Source of the DNA: Dictyostelium discoideum
Taxonomy: Eukaryota
DNA length: 64,000 nt
Direction: 5' to 3'
Assembly (NCBI GenBank): GCA_000004695.1
Contig: CM000152.2
Span: 2,816,001 to 2,880,000, forward strand
Shown here one piece after another: positions 25,134 through 54,350 of the stretch (position 1 is the first letter of the stretch; each line of letters starts with the position of its first letter). The notes beneath the pieces were generated by a model. That model saw only the letters and a program-made list of their open reading frames with translations, did no database searches and had not been told where the DNA came from. A program made the translations under genes and the position numbers.

Positions 25134-28100
25134 ATGACCAAATTTCTTTTTATTTTATTAATTTCTTACTTGTTAATTATAAATGCTATCAAAGGTCAAT
25201 TAAATACTCAAAATGGTATGAAAAAAAAAAAAAAAAAAAAATAAAAAGAAAGATATTTGTTTACTAATTATATTTTTTTTTTTTTTTTATTTATTTTTTA
25301 AACATTTATTTCATTTAAAAAGGACAATGCCTTACTAATATTTATTCAAATTTAGAATTAAGTATTGATCCAGTAGATTATTGTTCATTAAATTATGCAA
25401 GTTGTAATGGACAATTTGTTACTGGTTTGTAAGTAAAAAAAAAAAAAACTAAGAATTAAAATTTCAATAACTAATTATTTTAATTATTTATTTAACTTCT
25501 TTTTATCTTATATACAAAAAAAGAAACATAAACTCATATACATCTACATACGAATTTTCTCAAGTTGATTTTCAATGTTTTTCAAAGCTTTCAACACTTT
25601 TTCTATCAAATTTAAAAATTTCATTTGATTTTTTGGAAGGACCACTCCCTAATGGAATTGCTCTTTCCTTTCAAAATTGTTCTACAACTTATAATACTTT
25701 TTTTAATACACCAATTCATTCAAGTATAGTTCATTTATCAATTGATACAATACCTCCACAGTCATTACCTATTAATATTAACTTATCATTCCTTAATAAA
25801 GTTAGTTTTTTGTAAGTATTTTGCCAAAAAAAAAAAAAAAAAAAAGTTATCCTATTAATATTATTTATAATTTAAAATTCAAAACCTAAAATTAATTTAT
25901 TATTTTTTTTTTCTAAAAAATAGTTTATTTAGATTGAAAAAATTGGATTCATCCACCGATAATATTACATTGATTAATGATTTCCCAGTTGATAGTATGA
26001 ACCAATTTTCTCAAATAGTAATTGATATTAAAGATTTACCACCAATGGATAATGTTATTGTTGAAAGTCTAAGTTTAAGAACTTATAATGCACCCACTAA
26101 TAAAGGATACAATAATATTAAAACTTTAAAGAATATTTCTTATTTGTATATTTTCATTGAACAGGGATATTCAGATTTTAGTGAATTTGCTTTAATTCCA
26201 AATCAAAATAACATAAAACAATTGTATATATTTTTTTTAAAATTATTATTATTAATAATATTATTATTATTATTTTTCCCAATTATTAATAAAATATGTA
26301 TTATTATCTTTATTATTATTACTTTTTTAATAAATTAGATCATTTTCAGGAAATTTATCACCAGCATCAACAGGTAGAATTGATTTAAGAAATTTATTAA
26401 AATTGAATTTATTAAAATTAATGTCAGTTTCACTAAATTTTAATTATCAAGGTAATATTCCACTTATTCTACCACAAACAGTTCAACATTTTCAGATTTC
26501 AGAGGGTTTATTTTCAGTTGGAGTAAAAGAGTTTTTGAATGCTTATCCAAATATCTCTGAGGTTTATATCTTAAACAATCAAATGGATGGTAATTTTTCA
26601 GAGTGGAAAAATAGAGGTTATGATCAATTTTCTATAAGTGGGAATAGATTTCAAGGAACTGTTGACTCGTCATGGTGTGCCACAATAGCAACATTATCCA
26701 GAAATAAATTGACAGGTGATTTACCATCATGTTTTGCTTGTCATTTGTATAGTACACTAATTAATAGTTCAATATCTCAAAATCATTTTAATCCTATTCC
26801 ACCATGTACAACTTTAATACCAAATCTTAGATTCAATTCATCAAGTAATCTATTATATCTATATGGTGATGACTTGGGTTTCTACACAAATGATATTAAA
26901 GTAACTTTATCAGAAACAAAATTTTTCAATCCTTTAATTTATTCAAAATTATTTTATTGTGATGCATTTACTCTATCAAATTTACCAGAAACTTTAGATA
27001 TATTTTTTAAAAGTGCAAATAAAAATTTCACATTATCAACAATTGAAAAATCACCATTAGTAAATTTAGTAACTGTTGCATCTTCATCTGGTTTGTTATT
27101 TTTTGATGGTTCATTTTTTAATTATAATAAATCATCAATTAAAATTCAAATTGAAGATTTAACATGTTTAATTACTCAAACTACATTTAATCAAATCAGT
27201 TGTCTAATTCAAGGATTTTATAATAAGAATTCAATTGCTAAAATTTCAATTTCAGTAGAAAGTTATTACACCAGTAATTTAAAAAATTTACAAACAAACC
27301 TTTTTGCTTATTTAAATCAATCAACAACTGTTTATAGTTGTTCATTAGATTGTAACTCACTTGGTGGTATTTGTAATACATTAATTGGTCAATGTTCATT
27401 TAATTGTCCAAATGATTGTACAAATTCTTTGGCAGGTACATGTAATAGTTCAACAGGAGTATGCAATTGTTATACTGATTTTCAAGGTTTAGATTGTTCA
27501 TTACCATTTAAAGCTTGTACATCAGATTGTAGTTCACCATTAAGTCAAGGTTCATGTAATAATCAAACTGGTATTTGTCAATGTATACCAAATTATCAAG
27601 GTTTAAATTGTAAAATTCCATCACATTATATTTCATCAGTTATTCCATGTTCAATTGATGGTGGTGAAGTTTTAATTAATGGTTGGTTTGGCAATAATAA
27701 TGATGGTACACATTTATTATCATCATATAATATAGTTATAGGTAGTTTAGATTGTATTGTTACATCAATTAATGAAACAACAATTACATGTAATCTTGGA
27801 GCAGGTACAGGTACAAAAAATATTAAAATTATAAATTCAATTAATCCAAATGTAATTTTCAATGGTAATGGATTATTTAATTATCAAAATCCAATTAAAA
27901 CTTGTCCAAATAGTTGTACAAGTTTAAATAATGGTAAATGTAATTCAAATACAGGTGAATGTCAATGTAACGATAAATTTAGTGGTTTCGATTGTAGTAC
28001 ACCAATTAAAATCATTGAAAGTGCACCATCAACAAATACATCAATCAATAAAGATACAGGAGGTATAGAACTTACCAATCAAGATACAATCTATGAAATT

Positions 28101-28877
28101 TCAATTATATCATTAAATGAAATTTCAATTGATGGTTCAATTATTAAATCACATCAATTAAAAGGTAATTGGTCAAGCGATAATACAACAATAACACCAG
28201 ATTCAAATTATTTCAAATTTTCACAACAATTAATTAATAATACATGTAAAATTACATTTACTATTGAAGAGATTAAATTAAAAGATAAGAACTTTACATT
28301 TGGAACGACAACGTTTAAAGTTGAAAAAGATTCAATAAAATTATCAGTTTTAATTCAAGATTATCAATATCAAAGTTCATTAAATACATTACAATTAATA
28401 TTTTATTCAGCAGTTGGGGATGATACAGACTCAAATGATGATTGTAATAAACAAGATACATCAATTGATACATCAAATGCAAATAATCAACAAATTTCAA
28501 ATTATATTCAAATTTCTAAAAATTCAAAAACATTAGTCGGTCGTTTCATTAATCAAGTAATTGCAGATTCAAGATCAACTTTTATGTCAAGTACAATTAT
28601 TAAAGATAATAATAATAATTCATCATCATCAGTTATGTTAGGATTAAATCTACCACATTGTAAAGAATGTTTAATTGATCCAGACTTTTCTGTATTAGTA
28701 AGTCCAGATTTTAAAGAATCATGCAATGAATCAAAAAACAAATGGCTAATACCTGTCGTTGTCATTGTACCTGTAGTAGGTTGTGCTGTAATTGTTACTC
28801 TATCTATTGTTTTTTTTAAAAAATATAAATATAATTTAAAATTTATTGCAATCAAATTAAAACCATTTAAAAAATAA
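25134..28877 (+). CDS. Array member A: five-exon gene (~25134-25215, ~25323-25428, ~25524-25811, ~25924-26230, ~26339-28877) for a type I membrane protein with signal peptide, LRR-like region, 3+1 EGF-like repeats, IPT/TIG domain, TM helix and short tail
   Basis: Exon 1 'MTKFLFILLISYLLIINAIKGQLNTQN' ends at GTATG. The small exons end at GTAAGT/GTATAT donors and keep phase. Exon 5 (ORF 26403-28877) has the Cys spacing of EGF/tenascin-type repeats (CNSLGGICNTLIGQC, CPNDCTNSLAGTCNSSTGVCNCYTDFQGLDC, CTSDCSSPLSQGSCNNQTGICQCIPNYQGLNC). It has an IPT/TIG-like segment (PSHYISSVIPCSIDGGEVLINGWF...SLDCIVTSINETTITCNLGAG). The TM helix is WLIPVVVIVPVVGCAVIVTLSIVFF and the tail is KKYKYNLKFIAIKLKPFKK. Confidence 0.75.
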
Positions 28878-29222
28878 TAAAATAAAAAAATATTTTTTCA
28901 TTTTTTTTTTCATTTTTTTTTTTTAATTGAATCTAATACATATATCAAATTTTTATTTTTATTAATAACTTTTTAAAAAGTTATTATTATAATTCTTGTT
29001 GGTTTTAAAAGACTGAAAACGTAACCAAATAAAAAAAAAATCTGAAAAAAAAATCTAGAAAAATCTAATTCAGAGAAAAACCATAAATCAAAATTGTTTT
29101 TTTTTTTTTTTTTTTTTTTTTACATTTTCAATCATAATTATTTTTTTTTTTACTTTTTCATTGCCCAAAATTTTTTATTTTATTTTAATTTATTTTATTT
29201 TTAACAAAATATATTTAATATA

Positions 29223-30397
29223 ATGAAATTTCTTTTGATTTTATTTATTTCCTATTTAATAATAAATTTAGTTAAGGGTCAATTAAATTTACAAGAGGGT
29301 ATGAAAAATAAAAAATAAAAAAAAAAAAAATTATTTTATTACTCACCCCTTTTTTTTTTTTTATTTTATTTTTTTTTTTTCACACCCACATCAATTAAAA
29401 GAACAATGCCTTGGTCAAATATTTTCAAATTTGGGTGTTAATATTCAAATATCAGATTATTGTTCATCAAATTATGCAGTTTGTAATGGACAATTTGTTA
29501 ACGTTTTGTATGTAAAAAAAAAAAAAAAAAAAAAATTAATATTAAAATTTCAATAACTAATTATTTATTTTTAAATATTTATTTAATTCTTTTTACCTTA
29601 TATAAAAAAAAAGAGATATAAAATCATATACATCTACACACGAATTTTCTCAAATTGATTTTCAATGTTTTTCAAAGGTTACATCAATTAGTATTTCAGA
29701 TTTAAAAATTTCATCAACATTTTTAATAGGACCATTCCCTAGTGAAGTAGCACTTTCCTTTAGTAATTGCTCTACTACTTATAGTAATTTATTTTCAACA
29801 ATAATCAATTCAAATATAATAAGTTTGTCTTTTTATAAAATAGATCCACTTCAAATATCAACTACTATTAATATCAAATTATCATACCTTAATAGAGCAT
29901 CAATTTTGTAAGTTTTTTTTTTTTTTTTTTATATTTTTTATATTTTTTTATTTATTTACAATTTATTTTATTTATTGATTTGTTTTTTTATTTTTTTTTT
30001 ATTCTTTTTTTTTTTTATTTTTTTTTTTTAGTGTTTTTAGTTTGATAAATGTAGATTCATCAACTAATTATATCATATTGATCAATGATATCCCAGCTGA
30101 AAGTACGAAATCATTTACTCAAATTTCAATGGATATTAAAGATTTACCACCAATGGATAATATTATTTTGAAAGGTCTTAGTCTAAGAACTTATGATTCA
30201 CCTACTAGTAAAGGATACAGCAATATTCAAACTTTAAAATATATTACAAGTTTGAATATAATAAATATTCTAGGATATTCAGATTTTAATCAATTTTCTT
30301 TAATTCCAAATCAAAATAACTTTAAAACAATGTATTTATTATTATTTATTATTATTTTTTATTATTTATTTAATTTATATTAATAATAATAATAATT

Positions 30398-30428
<31 letters not shown>

Positions 30429-32982
30429 TAGATCATTTACAGGAAAATTATTACCAACACCAGCAGGAATAATTGATTTAAGAAATTTATCAGGATTAGA
30501 ACTATTAAAATTATCGTTGGTTTCATCAGATTTCAATTATCAGGGTAATATTCCACTTAATTTACCACAAACAGTTACAAGTTTTGATATTTCTGGTGGT
30601 TCATTTTCAGTTGGTGTAAAAGAGTTTTTGAATGCCCACCCAAATATCTATACTGTTTTTATCACAAGTAATCAAATTAATGCTAATTTTTCAGAATGGA
30701 AAAATAGAGGTTATGATCAATTTTCTATAAGTGGGAATAGATTTCAAGGAACTGTTGATACATCATGGTGTACCACAATAATAACTATTTCCCAAAATAA
30801 ATTGACAGGTGATTTACCATCATGTTTTGCTTGTCATTTGTATAATGCATATATTAATTTTACAGTATCTGAAAATCTTTTTAATCCTATTCTACCATGT
30901 ACAACTTTAATACCAAATCTTAGATTCGATTCATCAAGTAATATATTATATCTATATGGCGATGACTTGGGTTTCTTTGATATTGATATTAAAATAGTTT
31001 CATCACCAACAAACTTATTCAATCATTTAATTTATTCAAAATTATTTTATTGTGATAAATTTACTCAATCAAATTTACCAGAAATTTTAACTTTAGATTT
31101 TACAAGTGCAAATAAAACTTTTATATTATCAACAGTTGAAAAACCACCATTGGTAGATTTAGTCACTGTTGCATCTTCATCTGCTTTATTATTTTTTGAT
31201 GGATCATTTTTTAATTATAATAAATCATCAATTAAAATCAAAGTTGATGATTTAACATGTTTAATTACTCAAACTACATTTAATCAAACTAGTTGTCTAA
31301 TTCAAGGATCATATAATAAGAATTCACTTGCTCAAATTACAATTACAGTAGAAAGTTATTATACTACTAAATTAAAAATATTACAAACAAACCTTTTTGC
31401 TTATTTAAATCAATCAACAACAGTTTATAGTTGTTCGTTGGATTGTAACTCACTTGGTGGTATTTGTAATACATTAACAGGTCAATGTTCATTTAATTGT
31501 CCAAATGATTGTGCAAATTCTTTGGCAGGTACATGTAATAGTTCAACAGGAGTATGCAATTGTTATACTGATTTTCAAGGTTTAGATTGTTCATTACCAT
31601 TTAAAGCTTGTACATCAGATTGTAGTTCACCATTAAGTCAAGGTTCATGTAATAATCAAACTGGTATTTGTCAATGTATACCAAATTATCAAGGTTCAAA
31701 TTGTAATATTCCATCACATTATATTACTTCAGTTATTCCATGTTCAATTGATGGTGGTGAAGTTTTAATTAATGGTTGGTTTGGCAATAATAATGATGGT
31801 ACACATTTATTATCATCATATAATATAGTTATAGGTAGTTTAGATTGTATTGTTACATCAATTAATGAAACAACAATTACATGTAATCTTGGAGCAGGTA
31901 CAGGTACAAAAAATATTAAAATTATAAATTCAATTAATCCAAATGTAATTTTCAATGGTAATGGATTATTTAATTATCAAAATCCAATTAAAACTTGTCC
32001 AAATAGTTGTACAAGTTTAAATAATGGTAAATGTAATTCAAATACAGGTGAATGTCAATGTAACGATAAATTTAGTGGTTTCGATTGTAGTACACCAATT
32101 AAAATCATTGAAAGTGCACCACCAACAAATACATCAATCAATAAAGATACAGGAGGTATAGAACTTACCAATCAAGATACAATATATGAAATTTCAATTA
32201 TATCATTAAATGAAATTTCAATTGATGGTTCAATTATTAAATCACATCAATTAAAAGGTAATTGGTCAAGCGATAATACAACAATAACACCAGATTCAAA
32301 TTATTTCAAATTTTCACAACAATTAATTAATAATACATGTAAAATTACATTTACTATTGAAGAGATTAAATTAAAAGATAAGAGTTTTACATTTGGATCG
32401 ACAACGTTTAAAGTTGAAAAAGATTCAATAAAATTATCAGTTTTAATTCAAGATTATCAATATCAAAGTTCATTAAATACATTACAATTAATATTTTATT
32501 CAGCAGTTGGAAATGATTCAAATTCTAACAATGATGATTGTAATAAACAAGATACATCAATTGATACATCAAATGCAAATAATCAACAAATTTCAAATTA
32601 TATTCAAATTTCTAAAAATTCAAAAACATTAGTCGGTCGTTTCATTAATCAAGTAATTGCAGATTCAAGATCAACTTTTATGTCAAGTACAATTATTAAA
32701 GATAATGATAATAACTCATCGTCATCAGTTATGTTGGGATTAAATCTACCACATTGTAAAGAATGTTTAATTGATCCAGACTTTTCAGTATTGGTAAGTC
32801 CAGATTTTAAAGAATCATGCAATGAATCAACAAATAAAAACAAATGGTTAATACCTGTCGTTGTCATTGTACCTGTAGTAGGTTGTGCTGTAATTGTTAC
32901 TCTATCTATTGTTTTTTTTAAAAAATATAAATATAATTTAAAATTTATTGCAATCAAATTAAAACCATTTAAAAAGCAATAA
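29223..32982 (+). CDS. Array member B: five-exon paralog (~29223-29298, ~29403-29508, ~29607-29906, ~30037-30337, ~30432-32982), 821-aa main exon
   Basis: Same architecture as A. Signal peptide is MKFLLILFISYLIINLVKGQLNLQE. The 3' ~1.6 kb is nearly identical to A, C, D and E. The N-terminal part is ~80% identical to A and >95% identical to C. Confidence 0.75.
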
Positions 32983-33211
32983 AATAAAAAAGAATTTTTC
33001 ACAATTTTAAAATTTATTGCAATCAAATTAAAACCATTTAAAAAAAAAAAAAAAAAAAAAAGAATTTATTATTTATTATGTTGGTGACTCTATAAACTTG
33101 ATTGTTTTGGAAAACCAAAAAAGCATGACCATTTAGAAAATGCAAATTTTATATTTTCACCAAATATTCACAAGATTCACTCAACATTTTAGATTATCAT
33201 TATAGTCACTA

Positions 33212-33259
<48 letters not shown>

Positions 33260-33428
33260 TGGAATCTAATCGATAAATCAAATTTTAATTTATATTAATA
33301 AATTTCTAAAAAGTAATTATTATAATTTTTATTCGTTTTAAAAAATTGAAAATGTGAGTAATCAAAAAAAAAAAAAAAAATCTGAAATAATCTTTAATTC
33401 AGAGAAAAACAATAAATATCCAAAATCG

Positions 33429-33459
<31 letters not shown>

Positions 33460-33524
33460 TTCCTTGCCCAAAATTTTTATTTTATTTTATATTTTTTTAT
33501 TTTTAGCAAAATATATTTTATATA

Positions 33525-33813
33525 ATGAAATTTCTTTTGATTTTATTTATTTCCTATTTTGTAATAAATGTTGTCAAGGGTCAATTAAATTTACAAGAGG
33601 GTACGAAAAATAAAAAAATAAAAAAATAAAAAAAATTATTTATTACTCATCCTTTTTTATTTTTTTTTTTTTTTTTTTTCACACCCATCCACATCAATTA
33701 AAAGAACAATGCCTTGGTCAAATATTTTCAAATTTGGGTGTTAATATTCAAACATCAGATTATTGTTCATCAAATTATACAGGTTGTAATGGACAATTTG
33801 TTAGCGTTTTGTA

Positions 33814-33860
<47 letters not shown>

Positions 33861-36800
33861 AGGAATAAAATTCCAAAAACTAATTATTTATTTAAATTAT
33901 TTGTTTAACTTCTTTTTAAATGTTTAATAAAAAAAAAGAAATATAAAATCATATACATCCACACACGAATTTTCTCAAGTTGATTTTCAATGTTTTTCAA
34001 AGGTTATATCAATTAGTATTTCAGATTTAAAAATTTCATCAACATTTTTAGAAGGACCATTCCCCACCGAAGTAGCACTCTCCTTTCACAATTGCTCTAC
34101 TACTTATAGTAATTTATTTTCAACAATAATCAATTCAAATATAACGTATTTGTCTTTTGATAGAATAGATCCACTTCAAATATCAAATACTGTTAATATC
34201 AAATTATCATACCTTAATAGAGCGTCAATTTTGTAAGGTTTTTTTTTTTTTATATTTTATTTATTTTATTTATTAATTTATTTATTTATTTATTTATTTA
34301 TTTATTTTTTTAAAAAAAGTATTTTTAGTATTATAAAAGTAAGTTCATCATCTGATTATATCATATTGATTAATGATATCCCAGCTGGTAGTACGAAATC
34401 ATTTACTCAAATTGCAATGGATATTAAAGATTTACCACCAATGGATAATATTATTTTGAACGGTCTTAATATAAGAACTTTTAATTCACCTACTAGTAAA
34501 GGATACAGCAATATTCAAACTTTAAAATATATTACAAATTTCTATATTTTCATTAATCAAGGATATTCAGATTTTAGTGAATTTGCTTTAATTCCAAATC
34601 AAAATAACTTTAAAATAATGTATTTATTATTATTTTTTAAAAAATCATTATTTATTTAATTTATATTAATAAAAATAAAAATAATAATAATATAATATAT
34701 AGACAAATGGCAGGAAATTTATCACCAACACCAACTGGAATAATTGATTTAAGAAATTTATCAGGATTAAAACAATTAATATTATCGTTGGTTTCATCAG
34801 ATTTCAATTATCAAGGTCATATTCCACTTAATTTGCCACAAACAGTTAAAAATTTTCATATTTCCGATGGTTCATTTTCAGTTGGTGTAAAAGAGTTTTT
34901 GAATGCTTATCCGAATATCTCTATTGTTTCTATCCCAGGCAATCAAATTAACGCTAATTTTTCAGAATGGAAAAATAGAGGTTATGATCAATTTTCTATA
35001 AGTGAGAATAACTTTCAAGGAACTGTTGATTCATCATGGTGTACCACAATGACAACTTTATTAAAAAATAAATTGACAGGTGATTTACCATCATGTTTCG
35101 CTTGTCATTTGTATAATGAATATATTAATTTTACAGTATCTGAAAATCTTTTTAATCCTATTCTACCATGTACAACTTTAATACCAAATCTTAGATTCGA
35201 TTCATCAAGTAATATATTATATCTATATGGTGATGACTTGGGTTTCTATGAAACTGATATTAAAATAGTTTCATCACCAACAAAATCATTCAATCATTTA
35301 ATTTATTCAAAATTATTTTTTTGTGATAAATTTACTCAATCAAATTTACCAGAAATTTTAACTTTAGATTTTACAAGTGCAAATAAAACTTTTATATTAT
35401 CAACAGTTGAAAAACCACCATTAGTAGATTTAGTCACTGTTGCATCTTCATCTGCTTTATTATTTTTTGATGGATCATTTTTTAATTATAATAAATCATC
35501 AATTAAAATCAAAGTTGATGATTTAACATGTTTAATTACTCAAACTACATTTAATCAAACTAGTTGTCTAATTCAAGGATCATATAATAAGAATTCACTT
35601 GCTCAAATTACAATTACAGTAGAAAGTTATTATACAACTAAATTAAAAATATTACAAACAAACCTTTTTGCCTATTTAAATCAATCAACAACAGTTTATA
35701 GTTGTTCGTTGGATTGTAACTCACTTGGTGGTATTTGTAATACATTAATTGGTCAATGTTCATTTAATTGTCCAAATGATTGTACAAATTCTTTGGCAGG
35801 TACATGTAATAGTTCAACAGGAGTATGCAATTGTTATACTGATTTTCAAGGTTTAGATTGTTCATTACCATTTAAAGCTTGTACATCAGATTGTAGTTCA
35901 CCATTAAGTCAAGGTTCATGTAATAATCAAACTGGTATTTGTCAATGTATACCAAATTATCAAGGTTTAAATTGTAATATTCCATCACATTATATTACTT
36001 CAGTTATTCCATGTTCAATTGATGGTGGTGAAGTTTTAATTAATGGTTGGTTTGGTAATAATAATGATGGTACACATTTATTATCATCATATAATATAGT
36101 TATAGGTAGTTTAGATTGTATTGTTACATCAATTAATGAAACAGAAATTAAATGTAATCTTGGAGCAGGTACAGGTACAAAAAATATTAAAATTATAAAT
36201 TCAATTAATCCAAATGTAATTTTCAATGGTAATGGATTATTTAATTATCAAAATCCAATTAAAACTTGTCCAAATAGTTGTACAAGTTTAAATAATGGTA
36301 AATGTAATTCAAATACAGGTGAATGTCAATGTAACGATAAATTCATTGGTTTCGATTGTAGTACACCAATTAAAATCATTGAAAGTGCACCACCAACAAA
36401 TACATCAATCAATAAAGATACAGGAGGTATAGAACTTACCAATCAAGATACAATATATGAAATTTCAATTATATCATTAAATGAAATTTCAATTGATGGT
36501 TCAATTATAAAATCACATCAATTAAAAGGTAATTGGTCAAGCGATAATACAACAATAACACCAGATTCAAATTATTTCAAATTTTCACAAAAATTAATTA
36601 ATAATACATGTAAAATTACATTTACTATTGAAGAGATTAAATTAAAAGATAAGAACTTTACATTTGGAACGACAACGTTTAAAGTTGAAAAAGATTCAAT
36701 AAAATTATCAGTTTTAATTCAAGATTATCAATATCAAAGTTCATTAAATACATTACAATTAATATTTTATTCAGCAGTTGGAAATGATTCAAATTCTAAC

Positions 36801-37250
36801 AATGATGATTGTAATAAACAAGATACATCAATTGATACATCAAATGCAAATAATCAACAAATTTCAAATTATATTCAAATTTCTAAAAATTCAAAAACAT
36901 TAGTTGGTCGTTTCATTAATCAAGTAATTGCAGATTCAAGATCAACTTTTATGTCAAGTACAATTATTAAAGATAATAATAATAACTCATCGTCATCAGT
37001 TATGTTGGGATTAAATCTACCACATTGTAAAGAATGTTTAATTGATCCAGACTTTTCAGTATTAGTAAGTCCAGATTTTAAAGAATCATGCAATGAATCA
37101 ACAAATAAAAACAAATGGTTAATACCTGTCGTTGTCGTTGTACCTGTAGTAGGTTGTGCTGCAATTCTTACTCTATCTGTAGTTTTATATAAAAAATATA
37201 AATATAATTTAAAATTTATTGCAATCAAATTAAAACCATTTAAAGAATAA
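33525..37250 (+). CDS. Array member C: five-exon paralog (~33525-33600, ~33705-33810, ~33925-34235, ~34330-34620, ~34702-37250), 847-aa main exon
   Basis: Near-duplicate of B including ~300 bp of 5' flank. Exon 1 donor is GTACGA. TM helix is WLIPVVVVVPVVGCAAILTLSVVLY. Confidence 0.75.
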
Positions 37251-37322
37251 AAAATAATTTTTTTTAAAATCGCTTGTGTTTGAAATTATCTATATCTGCC
37301 CTATATTTATGGGTCTTAGATA

Positions 37323-37358
<36 letters not shown>

Positions 37359-37583
37359 CCTATTTATGTTTTATCTAATTAAATGCCAAAATAAAATGGT
37401 GTGTTATTGTTGAAGGATTCAAAACCCCAAAAAAAAAAAAATAATAAAAAATCAGACTCTTTGAAAAACTGGGTCTCATTAGTAGGATGGCGTAACCCTT
37501 ATTTTTTTTTTATTTCTAAACTTAATTCTTCAATTTTTTTTATTACTTTCTGAATGTGCAACTATTTTTTATTTTTTTTAATG

Positions 37584-37616
<33 letters not shown>

Positions 37617-38260
37617 ATAAGAAATGGTTACATTTATTTTTTATGTCATTTTGTGTATTTTTGAAGGAGATTTCTATTTATCATACTAAATTCATATTAA
37701 AAATAAATAAAATTAAATTTTTGTTCAAAAAAAAATGAAAAATGAAAATATTTTTTTTTATTTCAAATGCCAATGTTTTTATCTTTTTAAATTTTCTTTT
37801 TTTATTTTTTTTTTTAAAAATAACGCCCTTTAAAATAAATTTCTTCAATTATTAAAAAAATCAACGTAAAAAGTTTTTTTTCATATAAATTTTTATTTTT
37901 TTTATTTTTTTTTTTTATTTTTTTTTTTTATTTTTTTTTATTTTTTTTTTTTTTTTGTTTTATTTTATTTTTTATTTTATTTTATTTTATTTTATTTTAT
38001 TTTATTTTATTTTATTTTATTTTATTTTATTTTATTTTATAATTAAAATTGGCAAATTAATATGAATATTCAATTTTTATGTAATATTTTTATTTTTCGT
38101 CGAATAATTTGATATTTATAGGTTCCGTTTGATTTCTCGTTTAAATTTTCTTTTTTTTTTCTATTTTTTTTTTTTGGGATTGAAAATCTAAAAAATTATT
38201 TTTTTATAAAAAAAAAAAAAAACGATGATTTTTCATTAAGCAAACAACCAAAAAGTCGTG

Positions 38261-38397
38261 ATGATCAAATTTTTTACCATTTTAATTATATATTCTTTGT
38301 TGTTATTAAATTTTACCAAAGGTTCGACATTAGAGGACAGTGAAAGTATGAATAAAAAAAAAAAAAAAAAAAAAAGAAAATTCACAATACTAAATAT

Positions 38398-38430
<33 letters not shown>

Positions 38431-39055
38431 GATCACAAAAAAGAAATATGCTTAGATCATCTTTTATCAAATTTAGGAATAAATACTGTTATAGATTGTT
38501 TAAATAGTAATATTGTAGTATGTTCTACAAATAACCTAGGGACATTTGTTAGTGGTTTGTAAGAATGAATAAAAAAATAAAAAAAAAATAAAAAAAAAAA
38601 ATAATTCTATTAACATTTAATTTTTTATTACATTTTATTTAATTATTTATTTTATTTTATTTAATTTTGTTTTATTTTATTTTATTTTATTTTATTTTAT
38701 TTTATTTTATTTTATTTTATTTATTAGAGTTTTAAAATCAAACAATAATGCATACCAAATTTCTTCACTTGATTTTCAATGTTTTTCTAAGATTTCACAA
38801 GTTACTATTTCAAATTCAAATATTTCATCATCTTTTTTAAGAGGAAATACAACCATTGAATTCATTTCTTTTTCTAATAATACCATCGAATATAATGAAT
38901 TATTTTCATCACAAATTAATACAAAATTAAAAAATGTTTTTATTACTAATATACCACCACCAAATTCTCAAATTAATATTAATTTTTCAATAATTGCTTC
39001 CTTATCAAATTTGTAAGTTTTTTTTTTTTTTTTTTTTAATTTTTAATTCTTATTA

Positions 39056-39149
<94 letters not shown>

Positions 39150-39519
39150 CATTTTTATTAATATTATTTAATTAATTAAAATTGTTTTTTAAAAAAAGAC
39201 AATTTCAATTGAATACTTGGGGTGAGAATAGTAGATATATATCATTGATTAATGATTTTCCAGTTGGAGGAATGCGTCCAATCCCAAGTTTAGCAATGGA
39301 TCTTAAAGATATACCACCCATGGATAATGTTAAATGTGGAAGTGTTACTTTTAGAGCCTACGATTCACCTTCAGCTTTGGTTTTAGCATTTCCTAACATT
39401 AAAAAATATAAATTCAATTTATTTATACATTGCAAGAGGAACTTCAGATTTTACCCAATTTAGTTTAATTCCAAATGATAATTTTATATATACAATGTAT
39501 GTTTTTATTATTATTATTA

Positions 39520-39597
<78 letters not shown>

Positions 39598-42358
39598 TAT
39601 TATTTATTATTATTATTTTTATTATTAAAAAAGAACTAATTTATAATATTATTTTTTTTTTTTTTATTTTAAAAAAAAAAAAAGATTCTTTAATGGAGCT
39701 TTGATTTCACCATCTATTGTTGATTTAAGAAATTTAACTATATTAAATTATATTGATTTAAGAAATGTTATTTTAGATTTTAATTATCAAGGTAAAATTC
39801 CTCTTATTCTTCCTCAAAGTGTTACTAGTCTTGGTATTAGTGGAAGTTCTTTTTCTAGTGTTAATGAATTTATAGGAAATTATCCAAGAATTTCAACGAT
39901 TGCAATTTCTTTTAATCAAATTCCAGATAATTTTACAGAATGGAGAAATAGAGGTTATGCATCATTTGATGTAAATAATAATAAACTTCAAGGAACTATT
40001 GATTCGTCATGGTGTACTACTGTTTTAAAGATTGGTGATAATCAATTATCAGGTAAATTACCTTCTTGTTATACTTGTCATTTATTAAGTGATTATGTTA
40101 AATTTATGATTATTGGTGGTAAAAATTCATTTACAAATGTAGATCCAATACCAGAATGTACAACTTTAATACCAAACCTTAGATATAATTCCTCAACAAA
40201 AGAACTCACTCTATATGGTGATGATTTAGGTTTTTATACTGAAAATGTTATAGTACCAGGTTTTGATTATTCATTTTCTCCAAAGATTCAATCGAAATTA
40301 TTTGTAGCTAGTAATGTAATTCAATATGATTTACCCCAGATTTTAAATTTTAAATTTCCAGGAGCAAATAAAACATTTACATTATCAACAATTCAAAAAC
40401 CACCCATTATAAATACAGTAATAGCAACGGTTCAATCCTATTCTGTTATTTTAGAAGGATCATTTTTCAACTATAATATATCATCAATTGAAATCTTTAT
40501 TGGTGATGTTCAATGTTCAATAGTGTCTGCAACATTTTATAAAGTTGAATGTTTAACATTTGAAACATATGAGAAAAATATAATTGGAAAAGTTTCAATT
40601 AATATTAAAGATTATTACTATAGCAATTTAACAATATTAGAAACATCTGTAATTGCATATTTAAATCAAACTACACAAATTAAAAATTGTCAATTAGATT
40701 GTATCTCACTTGGTGGTTTTTGTAATACATTAATTGGTCAATGTAATATTGATTGTCCAAATAATTGTACTGGTTCATTATCAGGTACTTGTGAAAGATC
40801 AACAGGAGTTTGTATTTGTAATATTGGTTATCAAGGTATTGATTGTTCAGTACCAATTCATTCTTGTCCCTCAAATTGTAATGCTCAATCCAATCAAGGT
40901 ACATGTAATTATCAAAATGGTATTTGTCAATGTTCTCCAAATTATCAAGGTTTAGATTGTTCATTACCATTTAAAGTTTGTACATCAGATTGTAGTTCAC
41001 CATTAAATCAAGGTTCATGTAATAATCAAACTGGTATTTGTCAATGTATACCAAATTATCAAGGTTCAAATTGTAATATTCCATCACATTATATTACATC
41101 AGTTATTCCATGTTCAATTGATGGTGGTGAAGTTTTAATTAATGGTTGGTTTGGTAATAATAATGATGGTACAAATTTACTATCATCATATAATATTGTT
41201 ATAGGTAGTTTAGATTGTATTGTTACATCAATTAATGAAACAGAAATTAAATGTAATCTTGGAGCAGGTACAGGTACAAAAAATATTAAAATTATAAATT
41301 CAATTAATCCAAATGTAATTTTCAATGGTAATGGATTATTTAATTATCAAAATCCAATTAAAACTTGTCCAAATAGTTGTACAAGTTTAAATAATGGTAA
41401 ATGTAATTCAAATACAGGTGAATGTCAATGTAGTGATAAATTTAGTGGTTTCGATTGTAGTACTCCAATTACAATCATTGAAAGTGCACCACCAACAAAT
41501 ACATCAATCAATAAAGATACAGGAGGTATAGAACTTACCAATCAAGATACAATCTATGAAATTTCAATTATATCATTAAATGAAATTTCAATTGATGGTT
41601 CAATTATAAAATCACATCAATTAAAAGGTAATTGGTCAAGTGATAATACAACAATAACACCAGATTCAAATTATTTCAAATTTTCACAAAAACTAATTAA
41701 TAATACATGTAAAATTACATTCACTATTGAAGAGATTAAATTAAGAGATAAGAGTTTTACATTTGGAACAACAACGTTTAAAGTTGAAAAAGATTCAATA
41801 AAATTATCAGTTTTAATTCAAGATTATCAATATCAAAGTTCATTAAATACATTACAATTAATATTTTATTCAGCGGTTGGAGATGATACAAATTCAAATT
41901 CAAATAATGATTGTAATAAACAAGATACATCAATTGATACATCAAATGCAAATAATCAACAAATTTCAAATTATATTCAAATTTCTAAAAATTCAAAAAC
42001 ATTAGTCGGTCGTTTCATTAATCAAGTAATTGCAGATTCAAGATCAACTTTTATGTCAAGTACAATTATTAAAGATAATAATAAATCATCTTCATCATCA
42101 TCATCATCATCAGTTATGTTGGGACTAAATCTACCACATTGCAAAGAATGTTTAATTGATCCAGACTTTTCTGTATTAGTAAGTCCAGATTTTAAAGAAT
42201 CATGCAATGAATCAACAAATAAAAACAAATGGTTAATACCTGTCGTTGTCGTTGTACCTGTAGTAGGTTGTGCTGTAATTGCTACTATATCTATACTAAT
42301 GTATAGAAAGAATAGATATAGAATACAGCTTCTCAAACTAAGAACTTTTAAAAAATAA
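38261..42358 (+). CDS. Array member D: five-exon paralog (~38261-38345, ~38441-38549, ~38712-39011, ~39200-39489, ~39679-42358) with 4+1 EGF-like repeats; exon 4 carries a 2-nt deletion that gives a premature stop, so it may be a pseudogene
   Basis: Signal peptide is MIKFFTILIIYSLLLLNFTKGS. Exons 1-3 and exon 5 (ORF 39701-42358, 885 aa) are intact and in phase. Exon 4 reads '...SPSALVLAFPNIKKYKFNLFIHCKRNFRFYPI*' in the entering frame. The frame needed for exon 5 reads 'FLTLKNINSIYLYIARGTSDFTQFSLIPNDNFIYTM', which matches paralogs A-C. Compared with gene A, the gene D sequence is 2 nt shorter at ~39395-39420. Intron 4 holds two long (ATT)n arrays. Confidence 0.65.
39058..39155. repeat. (ATT)n microsatellite in intron 3 of gene D; a second array lies at 39497-39600 in intron 4
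   Basis: Direct reading. Confidence 0.9.
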
Positions 42359-43637
42359 AAAAATAAAATAGAAAAAATTTGAAAGTATGGTCCATTTTGG
42401 ATTTTACTTTTTTTTTTTAATGATAATTTTTTTAAATCTCGAAAGACAACCAATTCCAAATGGAAAAATAAAATCTAAACCTAAATTAATTTATAAATTA
42501 ATTTCTTTTAAATAACAATAATAATTTAAAGACAAAAAAAAAAGTTATTTTTAATAAAAAAAAAAGAGAAAATAAATATTATTTATAAAGTTTTTTTTTT
42601 TTTTTATTTTTTTTTTTATTTCCTATGCGGCTCTCCTTTGTTTTTGAAAATGAAATTATTTTTTTTTTTTTAATTATTTAAATGGTAATAAAAATAAAGA
42701 AAAATAAAAAAAAAAAATTACTAGGAGTAGTAGTACCCAGCTATCTCAAATACAAAGCAACATCATACCGCTACTATTACTATCATTATCATTATTATTG
42801 CCATTACCACCATTACCACTACCACACTATTATTACATTATTATTACCATACCACCATTATTATTATTATTACTACTACTATTAACATTACCACATTATT
42901 ATTATTACCACGATTATTACTATTACCATTATCATCAGCAATATATAAAAAAAAAAGATTCAATAGACTGACATATAGAATTTTCAATTTTGTACTGTTG
43001 TTCCAATTCTTGTCTCAGTTTCAATTTACAAATGTTCAATCACAGTAGAAATTATTTGGTACATGCCTTTATCGTTTTCTATCTTTTTCTTTTTCTTTTT
43101 TTTGTTGTTCTCTATGTTTTTCATTCTCTTTTTCGCAATGCTGTTGAAGATGATGGTGATGATGTTTATCCTCTGATCTAATTATTATTATTATTATTAT
43201 TTTTATTGGGAAAGGTTATGGTTGTTGATTTTGTTGGTGTTATTATTATAGATGCTTCTTTATTACTACTACTAAACCTTCATTTTTACTGGTTGTTTTT
43301 AATTAAAACAAAAAGAAAAGAAAAGAAAAAATAAAAAAATAATAAGTTTTGGATTGTTGTTTGGTTTTTTTTTTTTTTTTTTTTTTTTCCAAAAACCCAT
43401 TAAAAAATTTTTCCACCCCCCAAATTTTTTTAATTATTTGAAAAGTTTAATAGTTTTGGTATTTGATGTCTAGTTTTAATTTTTTGTTTTTTTTTATCTT
43501 AGGATAATAAAAAAAAAAAAATAAGAAATAAAAAAAAAAAAAAAAGAATGGATGTTGTTGTTTTTTTTTTTTTATTTTCACAAAAATAGCATTCATATAA
43601 TTTTTTTTATTTAATTGTTTAGCTCTTTGAAAGAACA

Positions 43638-46328
43638 ATGACAAAATTAATTACAATATTAATATTTTTTTTTTTATTATTTAATGTTATTAAAAGTTCT
43701 TCAACTGACCAAAGTATGTAGGAAAAAAAAAATAAAAAAATAAAAAACAAAAAAAAAAAAAACTTATATTTAAAAACTTTTTTTTTTTTTTTCATATTTA
43801 TTAAGATTGCTTGAATACTCTTAAAAATCAATTAAATGTAAAAGAATGTATAATTTGCCAAAAGGAAAATTGCATAAATACATTTGAATCATGTATTTCT
43901 GGTGATGAGGAAAATTTAAGTGTGTAGGTTTAAATTAATAAATAAAATAAATAAAAAAATAAATAAAAAAAAAATAAAAAAAAAAAAAATAAATAAATAA
44001 ATAAATAAATTAATAAATTATTATTATCACTAATTTTTGAAAATGTAATTTTTTTAATAGATTCTTAGACCAAATTCCAATTGATAGATTTGATCCTACA
44101 TGTTTTAAAAAGGTCAAAGAATTAACCATAAAAAACTTGAATTTTACAGAGTATTTGGATTCATTCAATGGTACATCTATTTCACTTATTGATTGTACTT
44201 ATGATAATTTAAATTCAATTAAGCATAATAAGATATATTTAACACATCTAAATATTACTAATTTAAAAACACAAGAGATTGGGGATATTGCTATTAATTT
44301 TATTAAAACCTTAATAGGATTTAAATCTATTTCTTATTTTTCATTTACTTTCAGTAATATTATCGGGGATTTCTCTGAATTCACGGCCGTGTTGGAAAAT
44401 TTAGAAATTAAAAGTTTTGAAATAAATAATAATCAACTTGTTGGAACTATTAATTCATCATGGTGTAATACCCTTTTAAAAATTAATAATAACAAGTTAT
44501 CCGGTGAATTACCATCTTGTTTTACATGTCATATTTATAGTGATTACGTTAAAAGTATGATTATTACTGGAAATAAATTTACAAATGAAAATCCAATAGC
44601 AGATTGTAAAACTTTAAAACCAAACCTTTTTTATAATTCCACTAGTCGCGAACTGTATCTCTATGGTAAAGATTTAGGTTTTATATCTGATGATATTAAA
44701 AATGATAAATATACTTTCAATTTAGAGAAACCTTCGAAATTATTTATAGCAACTAATGTAAATGAATCAGATTTACCAAAATATTTAAATATTACCTTTT
44801 CAGGAGCAAAAAAAGAATTTTCATTATCTACAACCAAAATAGCACCAATTGTATCCTCGATAACAATTTCAGAAATATTAGATTCAATAACCTTTACTGG
44901 AACAAATTTAAATGATCCACCACCAATTTCAATCTTGATTGGTGATAAAAATTACACAGACCTAAATTTTAATTTTAATCAAGTCCAATGTAAAATTCAA
45001 AGATTAAGTTATGATGATGATTTTGTAATCGTTAAAATTATTAATGGAGATGATTTTTACAAATTCAGTACTACTATATATACATATATAAACCAAAGCA
45101 TACAAGTTGATTATTGTTCAAAAGTTTGTAAAAAACTTGATGATGGTGTTTGCATTAAAATAAAAGAATATTGTGGTGGTGGAAATATAATATCAAATTC
45201 TTGTACTTCTTCAACAGCAGGCGGTTGTAATTGTTCAAATGATTTTCAAAATTCTTTTTGTTCCTATATACCTTGTCCTATGGATTGTAATTCTGAATCT
45301 AACCAAGGTATATGTAATTATCAAACTGGTAAATGTGAATGCCTACCATATTACCAAGGTCTGGATTGCTCTTTACCAAATAAACCCTGTAATACCAATT
45401 GTAGTTTTGATTCCGATCAAGGTAAATGTAATACTCAAACTGGTAATTGTGAATGCTCACCAAATTTCCAAGGTAAAAATTGTGAATTACCATTAAAATA
45501 TTGTTCATCAGACTGTAGTGCACCATTAAATAAAGGTTTTTGTAATGATCAAACTGGTATTTGTCAATGTTTTCCAAATTATCAAGGTTCAGATTGTTCT
45601 TTACCATTAAAAGTTTGTACATCAGATTGTAGTTTCGATTTAAATCAAGGCTGGTGTAATAATCAAACTGGTACTTGTCAATGTAAACCAAATTATCAAG
45701 GTTCGGATTGTAAAACTCCATCACATTATATTACATCAGTTATTCCATGTTCAATTGATGGTGGTGAAGTTTTAATTAATGGTTGGTTTGGTAATAATAA
45801 TGATGGTACAAATTTACTATCATCATATAATATTGTTATAGGTAGTTTAGATTGTATTGTTACATCAATTAATGAAACAGAAATTAAATGTAATCTTGGA
45901 GCAGGTACCGGTACAAAAAATATTAAAATTATAAATTCAATTAATCCAAATGTAATTTTCAATGGTAATGGATTATTTAATTATCAAAATCCAATTAAAA
46001 CTTGTCCAAATAGTTGTACAAGTTTAAATAATGGTAACTGTAATTCAAATACAGGTGAATGTCAATGTAATGATAAATTTAGAGGTTTCGATTGTAGTAC
46101 ACCAATTAAAATCATTGAAAGTGCACCATCAACAAATACATCAATCAATAAAGAAACAGGAGGTATAGAACTTACCAATCAAGATACAATATATGAAATT
46201 TCAATTATATCATTAAATGAAATTTCAATTGATGGTTCAATTATAAAATCATATCAATTAAAAGACAATTGGTCAATTTATAATATAAATGATGAATCAA
46301 CAACAAAAAGAACAACAACAACAAAAAG

Positions 46329-46380
<52 letters not shown>

Positions 46381-47067
46381 GATTTCAATAATATATTCAT
46401 GTTTTCACAAAAATTAATTAATAATACATGTAAAATTACTTATACCATAGAAGAGATTAAATTAAAAGATAAGAACTTTACATTTGGAACAACAACGTTT
46501 AAAGTTGAAAAAGATTCAATAAAATTATCAGTTTTAATTCAAGATTATCAATATCAAAGTTCATTAAATACATTACAATTAATATTTTATTCAGCAGTTG
46601 GAAATGATTCAAATTCTAACAATGATGATTGTAATAAACAAGATACATCAATTGATACATCAAATGCAAATAATCAACAAATTTCAAATTATATTCAAAT
46701 TTCTAAAAATTCAAAAACATTAGTCGGTCGTTTCATTAATCAAGTCATTGCAGATTCAAGATCAACTTTTATGTCAAGTACAATTATTAAAGATAATGTA
46801 AAATCATCATCAATTATGTTAGGATTAAATCTACCACATTGTAAAGAATGTTTAATTGATCCAGACTTTTCAGTTTTGGTTAGTCCAGATTTTAAAGAAT
46901 CATGTAATGAATCAACAAATAAGAACAAATGGTTTATACCAGTCATTGTCGTTGCACCTGTGGTAGGTTGTGCTGCAATTCTTACTCTATCTATTGTTTT
47001 GTATAGAAAGAACAAATATAACATTAAAATTGCTTCTGAAAAATTAAAATCTTTGAAAAGGAAATAA
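43638..47067 (+). CDS. Array member E: three-exon paralog (~43638-43714, ~43809-43921, ~44063-47067) with 6+1 EGF-like repeats and a poly-Thr insertion; it lacks the introns that separate exons 3, 4 and 5 in A-D
   Basis: Signal peptide is MTKLITILIFFFLLFNVIKSSSTDQ. Donors are GTATGT and GTAGGT. Exon 3 runs without interruption into ORF 44137-47067 (976 aa). The N-terminal half is strongly diverged but keeps the GELPSCFTCHIYS / LPNLFYNSTS..LYLYGKDLGF framework. There are extra Cys-rich repeats at 45240-45720. (ACA)n encodes TTKRTTTTKRT(T)17 at ~46300-46380. The 3' 1.3 kb is nearly identical to A-D. Confidence 0.75.
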
Positions 47068-47379
47068 TCAAAAAAAAAAAAAAAATATGAAAAGACAACA
47101 AATTCCAAATGTTGGAAAAATAAAATCCAAACCTCAAATTAAATTTTAAATTTAAACAAATAATTTAAAAACGAAAAAAATAAAATTATTTTTCACTAAA
47201 AAAAAAAAAAAAAAATAGAAAATAAATATTTATTTGCAAAGGTTTAAAGTTGGTTTTGATTTTTTTTTTTTTTTTTTTTTTTTACTTTTGATTTTTTTAT
47301 TTTCTATGAGGCTCTCCTTGAAAATGAAATTATTTATTTAAATGGACAATAAAAAAATAATTTAAAAAAAGTTTGGAAA

Positions 47380-47535
47380 CAAATCCAATTATAGATTGCG
47401 ATGTTTTAAATTTATTCTTCAAATAAACCATATAGAGTTGAAAAGATTGTTACAGATTTACCATTTGTGTGATAACAATGAGTTGCGTCAATCAACTTTA
47501 GAACGTAGATTTCATTCTATAGGGTGGCTTGTTGA
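47380..47535 (-). repeat. Dispersed repeat, copy 2 (inverted relative to the copy at 14990-15185), a fragment with AT-rich DNA on both sides
   Basis: The reverse complement, 'gaaaaataaataaacaaaatctcaacaagccaccctatagaatgaaatctacgttctaaagttgattgacgca...ggatttgtttccaaac', aligns with 14990-15180 at ~85% identity and has one 8-bp indel. Confidence 0.7.
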
Positions 47536-48347
47536 GATTTTGTTTATTTATTTTTCTTTTTATTTTTAATATTATTATTATTTATAATTTATTATTTAAT
47601 ATTTAATTTTTTTTTTTTTTTTATTTTATTTTTTTTATTTATTATTTATTATTTATTATTTAATATTTATTATGTATTTGTTATTAGTATTAGTTTTAAA
47701 CTAAATATTTAGATCTAAAAATACATACCATTTATGATGAGTTTATTAATTATTTAAATAATTTGTTGAATAGATTGATAAAATTATTTAATGTTATTGG
47801 AAAATATTTATTTATAAGTTTCTTATTAAATAAGTCAAAGGAGATAAAACGAATAATGATATGATGGACATATTGTGGTGGATTGTTTAATAAAAAATTG
47901 AAATTGTTTTCAAATAATATTTTAATAATTAAAATGATATTATTGAAATGACTATTTTTTATTGTTATTTTATCTGTACTGATAGAATCCTTTACTGGGA
48001 AATATCTCTTCACCTTTTTTGTACTGGTTATATATACCATTCTAATATTATATATTGATGTAATACATATAAAAAAAAAATTGAATAGACACACAGTAAA
48101 TAGTGTAAGTTGTTTTGAAAAATTTAAATTTAAATTAATTGTTTTTTTTTTTTTTTTGATTTCCCATGATAAAGACATGTGTTTATACATACTTACTTTA
48201 AATATAAAAAAATTATTATTTTCCTCAAAATGCACAATATTTTTTTTAAAAAAGAGAAAATAAATATTTATTTACAAAGTTTTTTACTTTTTTGTTCTTG
48301 AAAACGATATTATTTACAAAGGATTAAAGTGGTCTTGATTGATTTGA

Positions 48348-51597
<3,250 letters not shown>

Positions 51598-53913: not shown

Positions 53914-54033
53914 TAATTAATCGTATATATATATATATATTTTTTTTTGAATCATCTCACAATTTGAATCATTTATTAATTAATGTTTTAAAAAACAAAA
54001 ACAAGATGAATAAAAAAAAAAAAAAAAAAATTG

Positions 54034-54072
<39 letters not shown>

Positions 54073-54184
54073 ATAATAATTATTTTATTTTTAATTTTAT
54101 AAATTAAATAAAATAGTATTATTAATGATGATATAATTATAATATTTTTATTTTTTTTCATAAAAATTAATTTCATTTGTTGTT

Positions 54185-54350
54185 ATTGGTTAGAGAGTGT
54201 TGTTACCTCTTTGGTTCCAACAAAAATGAATTGATCAAAAGATAATGCTTAACCACAAGCTTTGACGATTCTTGAACGAGCAGTTTCAGTGAATCTTAAT
54301 GATTAAACAAACAGTGAGTAGTCTAATCTATATTTTTTATTTTCAATTAA
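54185..54350 (-). pseudogene. Genomic fragment of rpl18 covering the last ~30 bp of intron 3 plus most of exon 4; ~85% identical to 22150-22330
   Basis: The reverse complement reads 'gattaattgaaaataaaaaatatag attagactactcactgtttgtttaatcattaagattcactgaaactgctcgttcaagaatcgtcaaagcttgtggttaagcattatcttttgatcaattc...ggtaacaacact'. The rpl18 gene reads 'gattaattgaaaataaacaaaatatag attattagactgcccaaaactcactgtttgtgcattaagattcactgaaactgctcgttcaagaatcgtcaaagctggtggtaaagcattatctttcgatcaattc...ggtaacaacact'. Intron sequence is included, so this is a DNA-level copy rather than a processed one. Confidence 0.7.

Follow-up and report, generated by a model that had tools for sequence, protein, structure and literature searches.

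Domain-limited concerted evolution in a tandem array of ComC-family genes of Dictyostelium discoideum, very probably through repeated gene conversion

The window analysed here, a stretch of 64,000 nucleotides of the Dictyostelium discoideum AX4 genome (GCA_000004695.1, contig CM000152.2, positions 2,816,001 to 2,880,000), lies on chromosome 3 and carries a tandem array of five genes, A-E, which encode ComC-family type I membrane proteins. Within this array a bounded segment in the 3' part of the genes evolves in concert within genomes, silent sites included, and is itself a mosaic, with both of its flanks keeping orthology; the gene types A-C, D and E are old and have separate orthologues in sister species. 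We consider it very likely that interlocus gene conversion has repeatedly homogenised these 3' tracts. An initial annotation, drawn from the sequence, had favoured repeated gene conversion over recent duplication, and that preference is upheld by conflicting trees, normal synonymous divergence (dS) between species, mosaic sites and a second assembly.

Five open reading frames (ORFs) on the + strand define the array (26403-28877, 30517-32982, 34707-37250, 39701-42358 and 44137-47067 for A to E), each of them the large last exon of its gene. The overall G+C content of the window is ~20%, and coding islands stand within very AT-rich spacers. Translated, the ORF of gene C (34707-37250) gives the last 847 residues of the AX4 protein DDB_G0280003 at 100% identity. 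Small upstream exons were located by tblastn, three or four in A-C and two short matches in D, and tblastn mapping of upstream exons placed none for E; in L001, a separate D. discoideum chromosome assembly (GCA_054883475.1), the gene E model begins ~400 nt further 5' than the exon mapped in the window. The genes are as follows.

25325..28877, + strand: gene A; small 5' exons from ~25325 and a large last exon (stop-to-stop ORF 26334-28877), mapped by tblastn with the DDB_G0280003 protein
29223..32982, + strand: gene B; large last exon ~30427-32982, from tblastn and the stop-to-stop ORF
33525..37250, + strand: gene C, which is DDB_G0280003 (1107 aa); large last exon ~34680-37250, 100% protein match
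38729..42358, + strand: gene D, which is DDB_G0280029 (1032 aa); large last exon ~39686-42358, 100% tblastn match, mapped without the first 17 residues
44041..47067, + strand: gene E; large last exon, from the stop-to-stop ORF only

The homologues found, 55 in number, are all from species of Dictyostelium. Along the protein of gene C, Pfam places LRR_ComC at residues 76-383, EGF repeats at ~618-685, a TIG domain at ~714-774, a further EGF at ~783-812 and the ComC supersandwich domain at 823-1046, followed by a transmembrane (TM) helix and a short basic tail. The N-terminal match to the ComC-type leucine-rich repeat (LRR) domain (PF24141, residues 76-383) scores 63 bits against a cut-off of 27; a Pfam search of the D protein model, which has a shorter N-terminus, did not detect PF24141. 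The ComC supersandwich domain (PF22933, ComC_SSD) is recognised in C, D and E with E-values of 1e-54 to 1e-60, far beyond the curated cut-off, EGF_2 matches were returned by Pfam, and a hydrophobic TM stretch (WLIPVVVVVPVVGCA...LS) followed by a basic tail can be seen in the translations.

Similarity along the array genes changes abruptly. In a MAFFT alignment of the five genes read in 100-nt windows, D is 55-81% identical to A-C up to ~40900 and 93-100% identical afterwards, and E, at 47-67%, reaches at least 94% only from ~45690. A rises against B/C from 82-94% to 96-100% at ~27300 (from ~87% to ~98% at ~27295 in maximum chi-squared, or max-chi2, segments), and B and C share 86-100% across their whole length. 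Two-breakpoint max-chi2 values reached 341-443 for pairs that include D or E and 89-128 among A-C, compared to permutation maxima of 16-24 (200 permutations), so that the abrupt rather than uniform change described in the initial annotation is borne out; between C and D, 33 differences fall on 1300 sites inside the tract and 354 on 1088 sites outside it. In the variable-site list, D leaves the D/E state and takes on that of A-C between 40944 and 40953, and E-private differences end after 45716, both where the annotation had put them (~40950 and ~45720). Upstream, D and E are 55-66% identical to A-C at the nucleotide level overall, and protein identity to A-C is as low as had been claimed, 49-50% for D and 35-37.5% for E. 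The 5' breakpoints are nested, at ~30798/35069 in B/C, ~27295 in A, ~40948 in D and ~45717 in E, with the longest tracts in B/C and progressively shorter ones in A, D and E, in step with rising 5' divergence. As a correction to the initial annotation, B and C have their own breakpoint, further 5'.

Within the tract the five copies are 94.3-98.8% identical, so that the rise in identity stood and a uniform 99% did not; similarly, the longest runs identical in all five copies measure 128, 104 and 100 nt, and the runs of hundreds of identical nucleotides that had been reported exist only between pairs (up to 393 nt). At the other end, D from ~42279 and E from ~46921 fall back to 69-73% nucleotide identity to A-C over the TM segment and cytoplasmic tail, and their homogenised tracts end within the TM-coding segment, ~80-150 nt short of the stop codon. 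In D and E the tract is therefore an internal patch that is not anchored at the 3' end, contrary to the claims that near-identity continues to the stop and that the tracts are 3'-anchored; in D. firmibasis and D. dimigraforme, high identity does reach the stop codon and collapses right after it. The E tract is further split in two at ~46266-46401 by a private Thr-rich insertion (…STTKRTTTTKRTTTTTTTTTTTTTTTTTD…) with diverged borders. The tracts, the 3' segments beyond them and an antisense ORF are located as follows.

27485..28791, + strand: homogenised tract of A as shared with D, from max-chi2 and sliding window; against B/C it runs from 27295 towards the stop
31578..32893, + strand: homogenised tract of B, coordinates carried over from A via the codon alignment
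35849..37164, + strand: homogenised tract of C, reaching from the last EGF through TIG, EGF and ComC_SSD into the beginning of the TM segment, from max-chi2 and the domain map
40948..42278, + strand: homogenised tract of D, 5' breakpoint between 40944 and 40953, 3' end in the TM-coding segment
45717..46920, + strand: homogenised tract of E, 5' breakpoint after 45716, from variable sites
42279..42358, + strand: D-type TM end and cytoplasmic tail (YRKNRYRIQLLKLRTFKK), not homogenised, kept in D-type orthologues of other genomes
46921..47067, + strand: E-type TM segment and cytoplasmic tail (YRKNKYNIKIASEKLKSLKRK), not homogenised, kept in E-type orthologues
27626..27862, - strand: antisense 78-aa ORF with a TTG start, whose first 26 nt recur at 31955, 36226, 41325 and 45962

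The start sequence of the antisense ORF is thus repeated in all five copies, and the ORF is, as the initial annotation had it, a by-product of tract identity; it is not a gene.

Homogeneity extends to silent sites, as had also been claimed. By the Nei-Gojobori method, applied here to a genome with extreme codon bias, dS between A-C and D/E amounts to 0.63-0.99 for the 5' part and drops to 0.08-0.13 across the tract, with 0.20-0.52 for the TM segment and tail. Silent sites of the 5' part are near saturation, with a proportion of synonymous differences (pS) of 0.43-0.55 and a G+C content at third codon positions (GC3) of ~0.1, and the ratio of non-synonymous to synonymous divergence (dN/dS) there rises to ~1.0 for D vs E. 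Within the AX4 tract, informative sites (alignment columns 550-957) support the splits AB/CDE and ABC/DE at 6 sites each, AD/BCE at 5, and ADE/BC, AE/BCD, ACE/BD and ACD/BE at 2 each. These are seven mutually incompatible splits among five sequences, for which one tree allows only two. Sites with the same split are clustered within 8-15 nt (AB/CDE at A 27780-27787, AD/BCE at 28419-28433, ACE/BD at 28291-28292), and such clusters are the expected trace of many short conversion patches from different donors.

The comparison was extended to syntenic arrays from six other genomes, those of the D. discoideum isolates ACTFIR and ACTFIW (named by locus tag), D. cf. discoideum (ACTFIZ), D. citrinum, D. 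firmibasis and D. dimigraforme, which carry 5, 4, 4, 4, 2 and 2 copies, respectively; 25 genes from seven genomes, AX4 included, entered the comparison. For each gene, a 5' segment of ~0.9 kb (LRR end to first EGF) and a 3' tract of ~1.1 kb were defined by tblastn, and trees were built by neighbour joining from Jukes-Cantor distances with 200 bootstrap replicates. For the 5' segment of AX4_D, identity amounts to 96.7-96.8% against the third gene of ACTFIR and ACTFIW, 89.9% against gene 3 of cf. discoideum and ~80% against genes 2-4 of citrinum, but only 64-67% against AX4_A-C; the 5' segment of AX4_E shares 92% and 82% with its orthologues and 58-67% with its AX4 neighbours. Identity between gene types within AX4 thus spans 58-67% in this segment, against 80-90% between AX4_D and its cf. 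discoideum and citrinum orthologues. In the 5' tree, the D-type genes with citrinum genes 2-4 (cit_2-4), the E-type genes, and the A-C-type genes with cit_1 each form a clade with 100% bootstrap support, and the tails of D and E keep the same orthology. Cytoplasmic tails follow gene type across genomes, with FKKYKYNLKFIAIKLKPFKK in A-C, YRKNRYRIQLLKLRTFKK in D and YRKNKYNIKIASEKLKSLKRK in E.

In the tract, paralogues within a genome are closer to each other than orthologues are between species. Nucleotide identities of the tract were as follows.

Within AX4: 95.5-98.8% (~1.1 kb extracted segment)
Within D. cf. discoideum: 93.7-98.8%
Within D. citrinum: 94.9-99.4%
Within D. firmibasis: 99.4% (5' segment 73.8%)
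Within D. dimigraforme: 98.7% (5' segment 62.3%)
Between species: 80-95.5%

A degraded copy in ACTFIW (FIW_4) takes within-genome tract identity down to 92-93%. The tract tree groups by species, with 100% bootstrap each for D. discoideum sensu lato, citrinum, firmibasis and dimigraforme and 78% for cf. discoideum, and gives 0% to gene-type clades. Species-specific motif states are common to all paralogues, such as SINETTIKC in four of four cf. discoideum genes and KDKSFTFGTT in four of four citrinum genes; among D. discoideum isolates, motif states are shuffled across non-orthologous copies, and the AX4_E tract is 96.2% identical to AX4_C compared with 94.3% to its own orthologue in ACTFIR. 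Silent sites in the tract are nearly homogeneous within genomes (paralogue dS being lowest in firmibasis, at 0.017, and dimigraforme, at 0.027, followed by cf. discoideum with 0.04-0.09 and by AX4 and citrinum with 0.10-0.12) and diverge normally between species, at a dS from AX4 of 0.34-0.35 in citrinum, 0.48 in firmibasis and 0.31 in dimigraforme, with 5' orthologues at 0.40-0.50. A flanking RING gene, with ~11% mismatches in citrinum and ~12.7% in firmibasis, has diverged to an extent comparable to the tract, which argues that the tract is not mutationally cold. Between orthologues, dN/dS is 0.41-0.79 in the 5' segment, the head of the protein, and 0.10-0.45 in the tract. The low-to-high identity step is present in the array of every species, the rise falling in the EGF-repeat region, where the number of repeats varies between copies, and the identity of D- and E-type genes drops at the TM segment in cf. 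discoideum just as it does in AX4.

Some copies in these arrays depart from the common architecture. Array gene 2 of D. citrinum (cit_2, L004:16277-19681) carries a D-type 5' segment and an A-C-type cytoplasmic tail and is likely a crossover or long-tract chimera. The first array gene of ACTFIW (L008:7188-7946) has a stop codon inside its 5' segment, and the fourth (L008:21481-22613) has a degraded 3' part, found as two overlapping tblastn pieces with 48-71% protein identity to the AX4 tract; from their sequences, both look like pseudogenising copies. Several newer annotations fuse adjacent array genes into models of 2100-2500 aa or join them to the neighbouring ribosomal protein L18 gene (L001:1624-9472, L003:1-4977, L004:14962-23949 and L007:3149-8371), probably because of the near-identical repeats.

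Four other explanations of this pattern were weighed. The near-identical repeats of 1.2-1.5 kb, in a reference that we take to have been assembled from Sanger-era data, would favour an assembly artefact in which a single 3' half was collapsed or copied into several AX4 gene models. Such an artefact is, however, extremely improbable. Each AX4 copy has its own private substitutions and indels within the tract, the six other genomes share the same architecture, and L001 has all five copies and aligns with window positions 23503-47252 along 23.7 kb (99.79% identity; 12 mismatches, 9 gap openings); the array is thus reproduced, and the possibility of a collapse that the initial annotation had itself raised does not hold. 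Ten new Dictyostelium assemblies, that of the lab strain AX2-214 included, were made de novo from Nanopore and Illumina data (PMC12745789), and from its near-identity to AX4 we infer that L001 is the AX2-214 assembly. Almost no weight can be given, likewise, to a recent duplication of whole genes followed by very fast, positively selected 5' divergence. It would accommodate the high 5' dN/dS, up to ~1.0 for D vs E, and the pair B/C does resemble the product of a recent duplication of the entire unit, but the silent sites of the 5' part are saturated too (pS 0.43-0.55), and each 5' type has an orthologue in cf. discoideum and citrinum (100% bootstrap), so that the types predate these species and the tracts postdate them. 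Recent duplication with a fast-evolving head is thereby excluded for D and E, and serves as a partial explanation solely in the case of B vs C.

Uniformly old genes whose 3' half is held under very strong constraint, whether on the protein, an antisense transcript or RNA structure, would fit a tract dN/dS (0.10-0.45) below that of the 5' segment (0.41-0.79) between orthologues, and the recurrence of the antisense ORF in all copies. Yet silent sites of the tract are near-identical between paralogues while diverging between species at about the rate of the flanking gene (dS 0.31-0.48), the tract tree is species-specific with 100% bootstrap support, and the antisense ORF, which has a TTG start, is without independent support; we regard constraint as a negligible candidate. 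Unequal crossing-over in the tandem array, which without conversion proper would have made chimeric genes with the 5' half of one copy and the 3' half and downstream spacer of another, is quite unlikely as the full explanation. Unequal exchange does occur, as the arrays hold 2 to 5 copies depending on the genome. In favour of crossing-over, too, cit_2 joins a D-type 5' segment to an A-type tail, and in firmibasis and dimigraforme identity extends to the stop codon; it probably has a share in changes of copy number and in chimeras of the cit_2 kind. A single crossover, however, cannot yield an internal patch, and the block shared by D/E with A-C is bounded on both sides (69-73% in the TM segment and tail); in their 3' flanks D and E are alike but do not resemble A-C, the seven incompatible splits in short clusters require many small exchanges, and homogenisation arose independently in each of five species.

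In the gene conversion that we favour, a segment of ~1.2-1.5 kb would have been overwritten repeatedly by short, non-reciprocal copying between misaligned neighbours. The segment in question encodes the membrane-proximal ectodomain, from the last EGF repeat through TIG, EGF and the ComC supersandwich domain into the TM segment, and the 5' head, formed by the LRR, the first beta-sandwich and the EGF repeats, keeps the identity of its gene type, as does the 3' cytoplasmic tail in the discoideum-citrinum clade. A plausible molecular route is double-strand-break repair templated by a paralogue, with tracts starting in the already similar core and stopping as homology runs out, whether in the head, which is diverged by ~35-45% and has indels in EGF-repeat number, or at the TM segment and tail. 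A boundary set by loss of homology would be self-reinforcing and would explain both the nested 5' breakpoints and the order of tract lengths. Selection in favour of distinct heads carried by a common stalk may also strengthen this boundary; the higher dN/dS of the head than of the tract is compatible with such selection but is not diagnostic of it.

Several observations weigh against this reading or limit its reach. The evidence for conversion is all comparative, with no event observed directly, and the neighbour-joining trees are not model-based. Because the silent sites of the 5' part are near saturated in this AT-rich genome (pS ~0.45-0.55), 5' distances are imprecise. B and C share ~95% identity across the gene, and the regions upstream of them can be aligned at 88%, so part of the similarity among A, B and C is ordinary recent duplication of whole units. 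No GC3 excess was found in the tract (0.06-0.07 vs 0.07-0.15 in the 5' part), and the GC-biased signature that counts as support in protocadherins is therefore missing here. Lastly, the dS of ~0.10-0.12 between D/E and A-C in the AX4 tract is as large as that between AX4 and other D. discoideum isolates, which implies that homogenisation of D and E in the AX4 lineage is not very recent.

Regional gene conversion has been described for the variable exons of protocadherins in teleosts and mammals (Yu et al. 2007, PMC1852091; Noonan et al. 2004 as cited there), where 3' parts (EC4-6 onward) are >99% identical among neighbours, 5' parts are divergent and breakpoints are subcluster-specific (PMC1852091). 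Clustered protocadherins are the closest described parallel to the A-E array. Both consist of tandem surface genes of adhesion or recognition type, in which the 5' portion of a large exon, encoding the distal ectodomain, has diverged and follows orthology, the membrane-proximal 3' portion is homogenised at silent sites in a lineage-specific manner, and breakpoints differ between paralogue groups. They differ in that GC3 is raised in the converted region of fugu (PMC1852091) and not in A-E. Furthermore, the proteins of the amoebozoan array are built from LRR, EGF, TIG and ComC_SSD rather than cadherin repeats, each A-E gene is complete with its own tail instead of using shared constant exons, and AX4 tract identity is 94-99%, not above 99%. 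The tomato Hcr9 genes (Cf-4/Cf-9), a possible further parallel, are tandem LRR-TM receptor-like genes with variable N-terminal LRRs and a near-identical C-terminal half, for which exchange between paralogues has been invoked; they are plant immune receptors with known ligand specificity.

Within the genus, the tgrB/tgrC allorecognition locus has chimeric N- and C-terminal histories, which have been ascribed to interlocus conversion or recombination (PMC12745789; bioRxiv 10.1101/2025.10.22.684067). It likewise holds tandem TIG/EGF surface proteins with copy-number turnover and intermingled paralogues, but it is another family at another locus, A-E being of the ComC type with LRR_ComC and ComC_SSD, and exchange at tgr is linked to diversification, whereas in A-E it homogenises a fixed block of domains. 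Literature searches found no earlier report of gene conversion or concerted evolution in the ComC family of Dictyostelium. The A-E array is thus a new instance of a well-known process, domain-limited gene conversion, and shows cleanly, across several species, concerted evolution confined to certain domains in an amoebozoan whose genome is extremely AT-rich, with no GC-biased signature. For phylogeny, it means that trees of whole genes or 3' halves are misleading in the ComC family and that orthology can be read only from the 5' LRR part and the tail; for assembly and annotation, it means that the array is difficult with short reads and that neighbouring copies are sometimes fused in gene models.

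The same asymmetry recurs elsewhere. A second ComC array in D. firmibasis, on another chromosome (L009:6279-8879 and L009:11283-13928), has divergent heads and a near-identical 3' half, since along the large exon pS is 0.4-0.65 for the first ~450 codons and drops to 0.02-0.09 for the last ~250. Three more ComC arrays show the asymmetry between head and 3' half at the protein level; the array proteins compared were P0041/P0046, P0036/37/42, P0043/48 and P0050/51, and the comparison of the second AX4 array (DDB_G0272364, P0041) was made at the protein level only. A divergent head joined to a near-identical 3' half therefore seems to be a property of ComC-family arrays generally and not only of the A-E locus, and the pattern suggests that ComC-type proteins pair diversified heads with an interchangeable stalk. 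More speculatively, and we hold this to be rather doubtful, ComC arrays could be repertoires in which variable heads sit on a uniform stalk, which would parallel clustered protocadherins outside animals and without constant exons. Old and diversified LRR/EGF heads would then confer different binding specificities, the TIG-EGF-supersandwich stalk of any one genome would be kept identical by conversion for a common partner, in cis or in signalling, and the conversion boundary would be maintained by selection and not by loss of homology alone. The firmibasis L009 pattern and the three arrays compared at the protein level are compatible with such repertoires without proving them.

Regarding the isolates, the RING/IBR-type flanking gene differs by ~4% substitutions between AX4 (window 48348-50894) and a D. 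discoideum-labelled isolate (L003:20082-22249). This is far above what we would expect within a species and fits a published comment on some tropical isolates being diverged or cryptic lineages (PMC12745789). A tgr-like hyperpolymorphism of the 5' part between D. discoideum isolates was considered and rejected, as 5' segments differ by 3-8% at the nucleotide level and the flanking RING gene by ~4%, and several of these isolates are treated as diverged or cryptic lineages (PMC12745789).

The self-BLAST of the window was run with dust and a length filter, as A/T-rich repeats otherwise dominate. Right after the stop codon of gene B, positions 32983-33050 contain ...AAATTTATTGCAATCAAATTAAAACCATTTAAAAAA..., which repeats the coding sequence of the tail KFIAIKLKPFKK and represents a short tandem duplication of the 3' end of gene B. 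Just downstream of gene E, positions 47377-47556 match 14999-15169 on the opposite strand, 32 kb upstream, as an inverted 180-nt match of 84.6%. At 54000-62100 lies a block richer in G+C (28-41%) with strong strand skew, in which reverse-transcriptase ORFs flank a tRNA-Arg(ACG) gene (60124-60197) on both sides; these ORFs look like tRNA-targeted non-LTR (long terminal repeat) retrotransposons, presumably of the TRE type.

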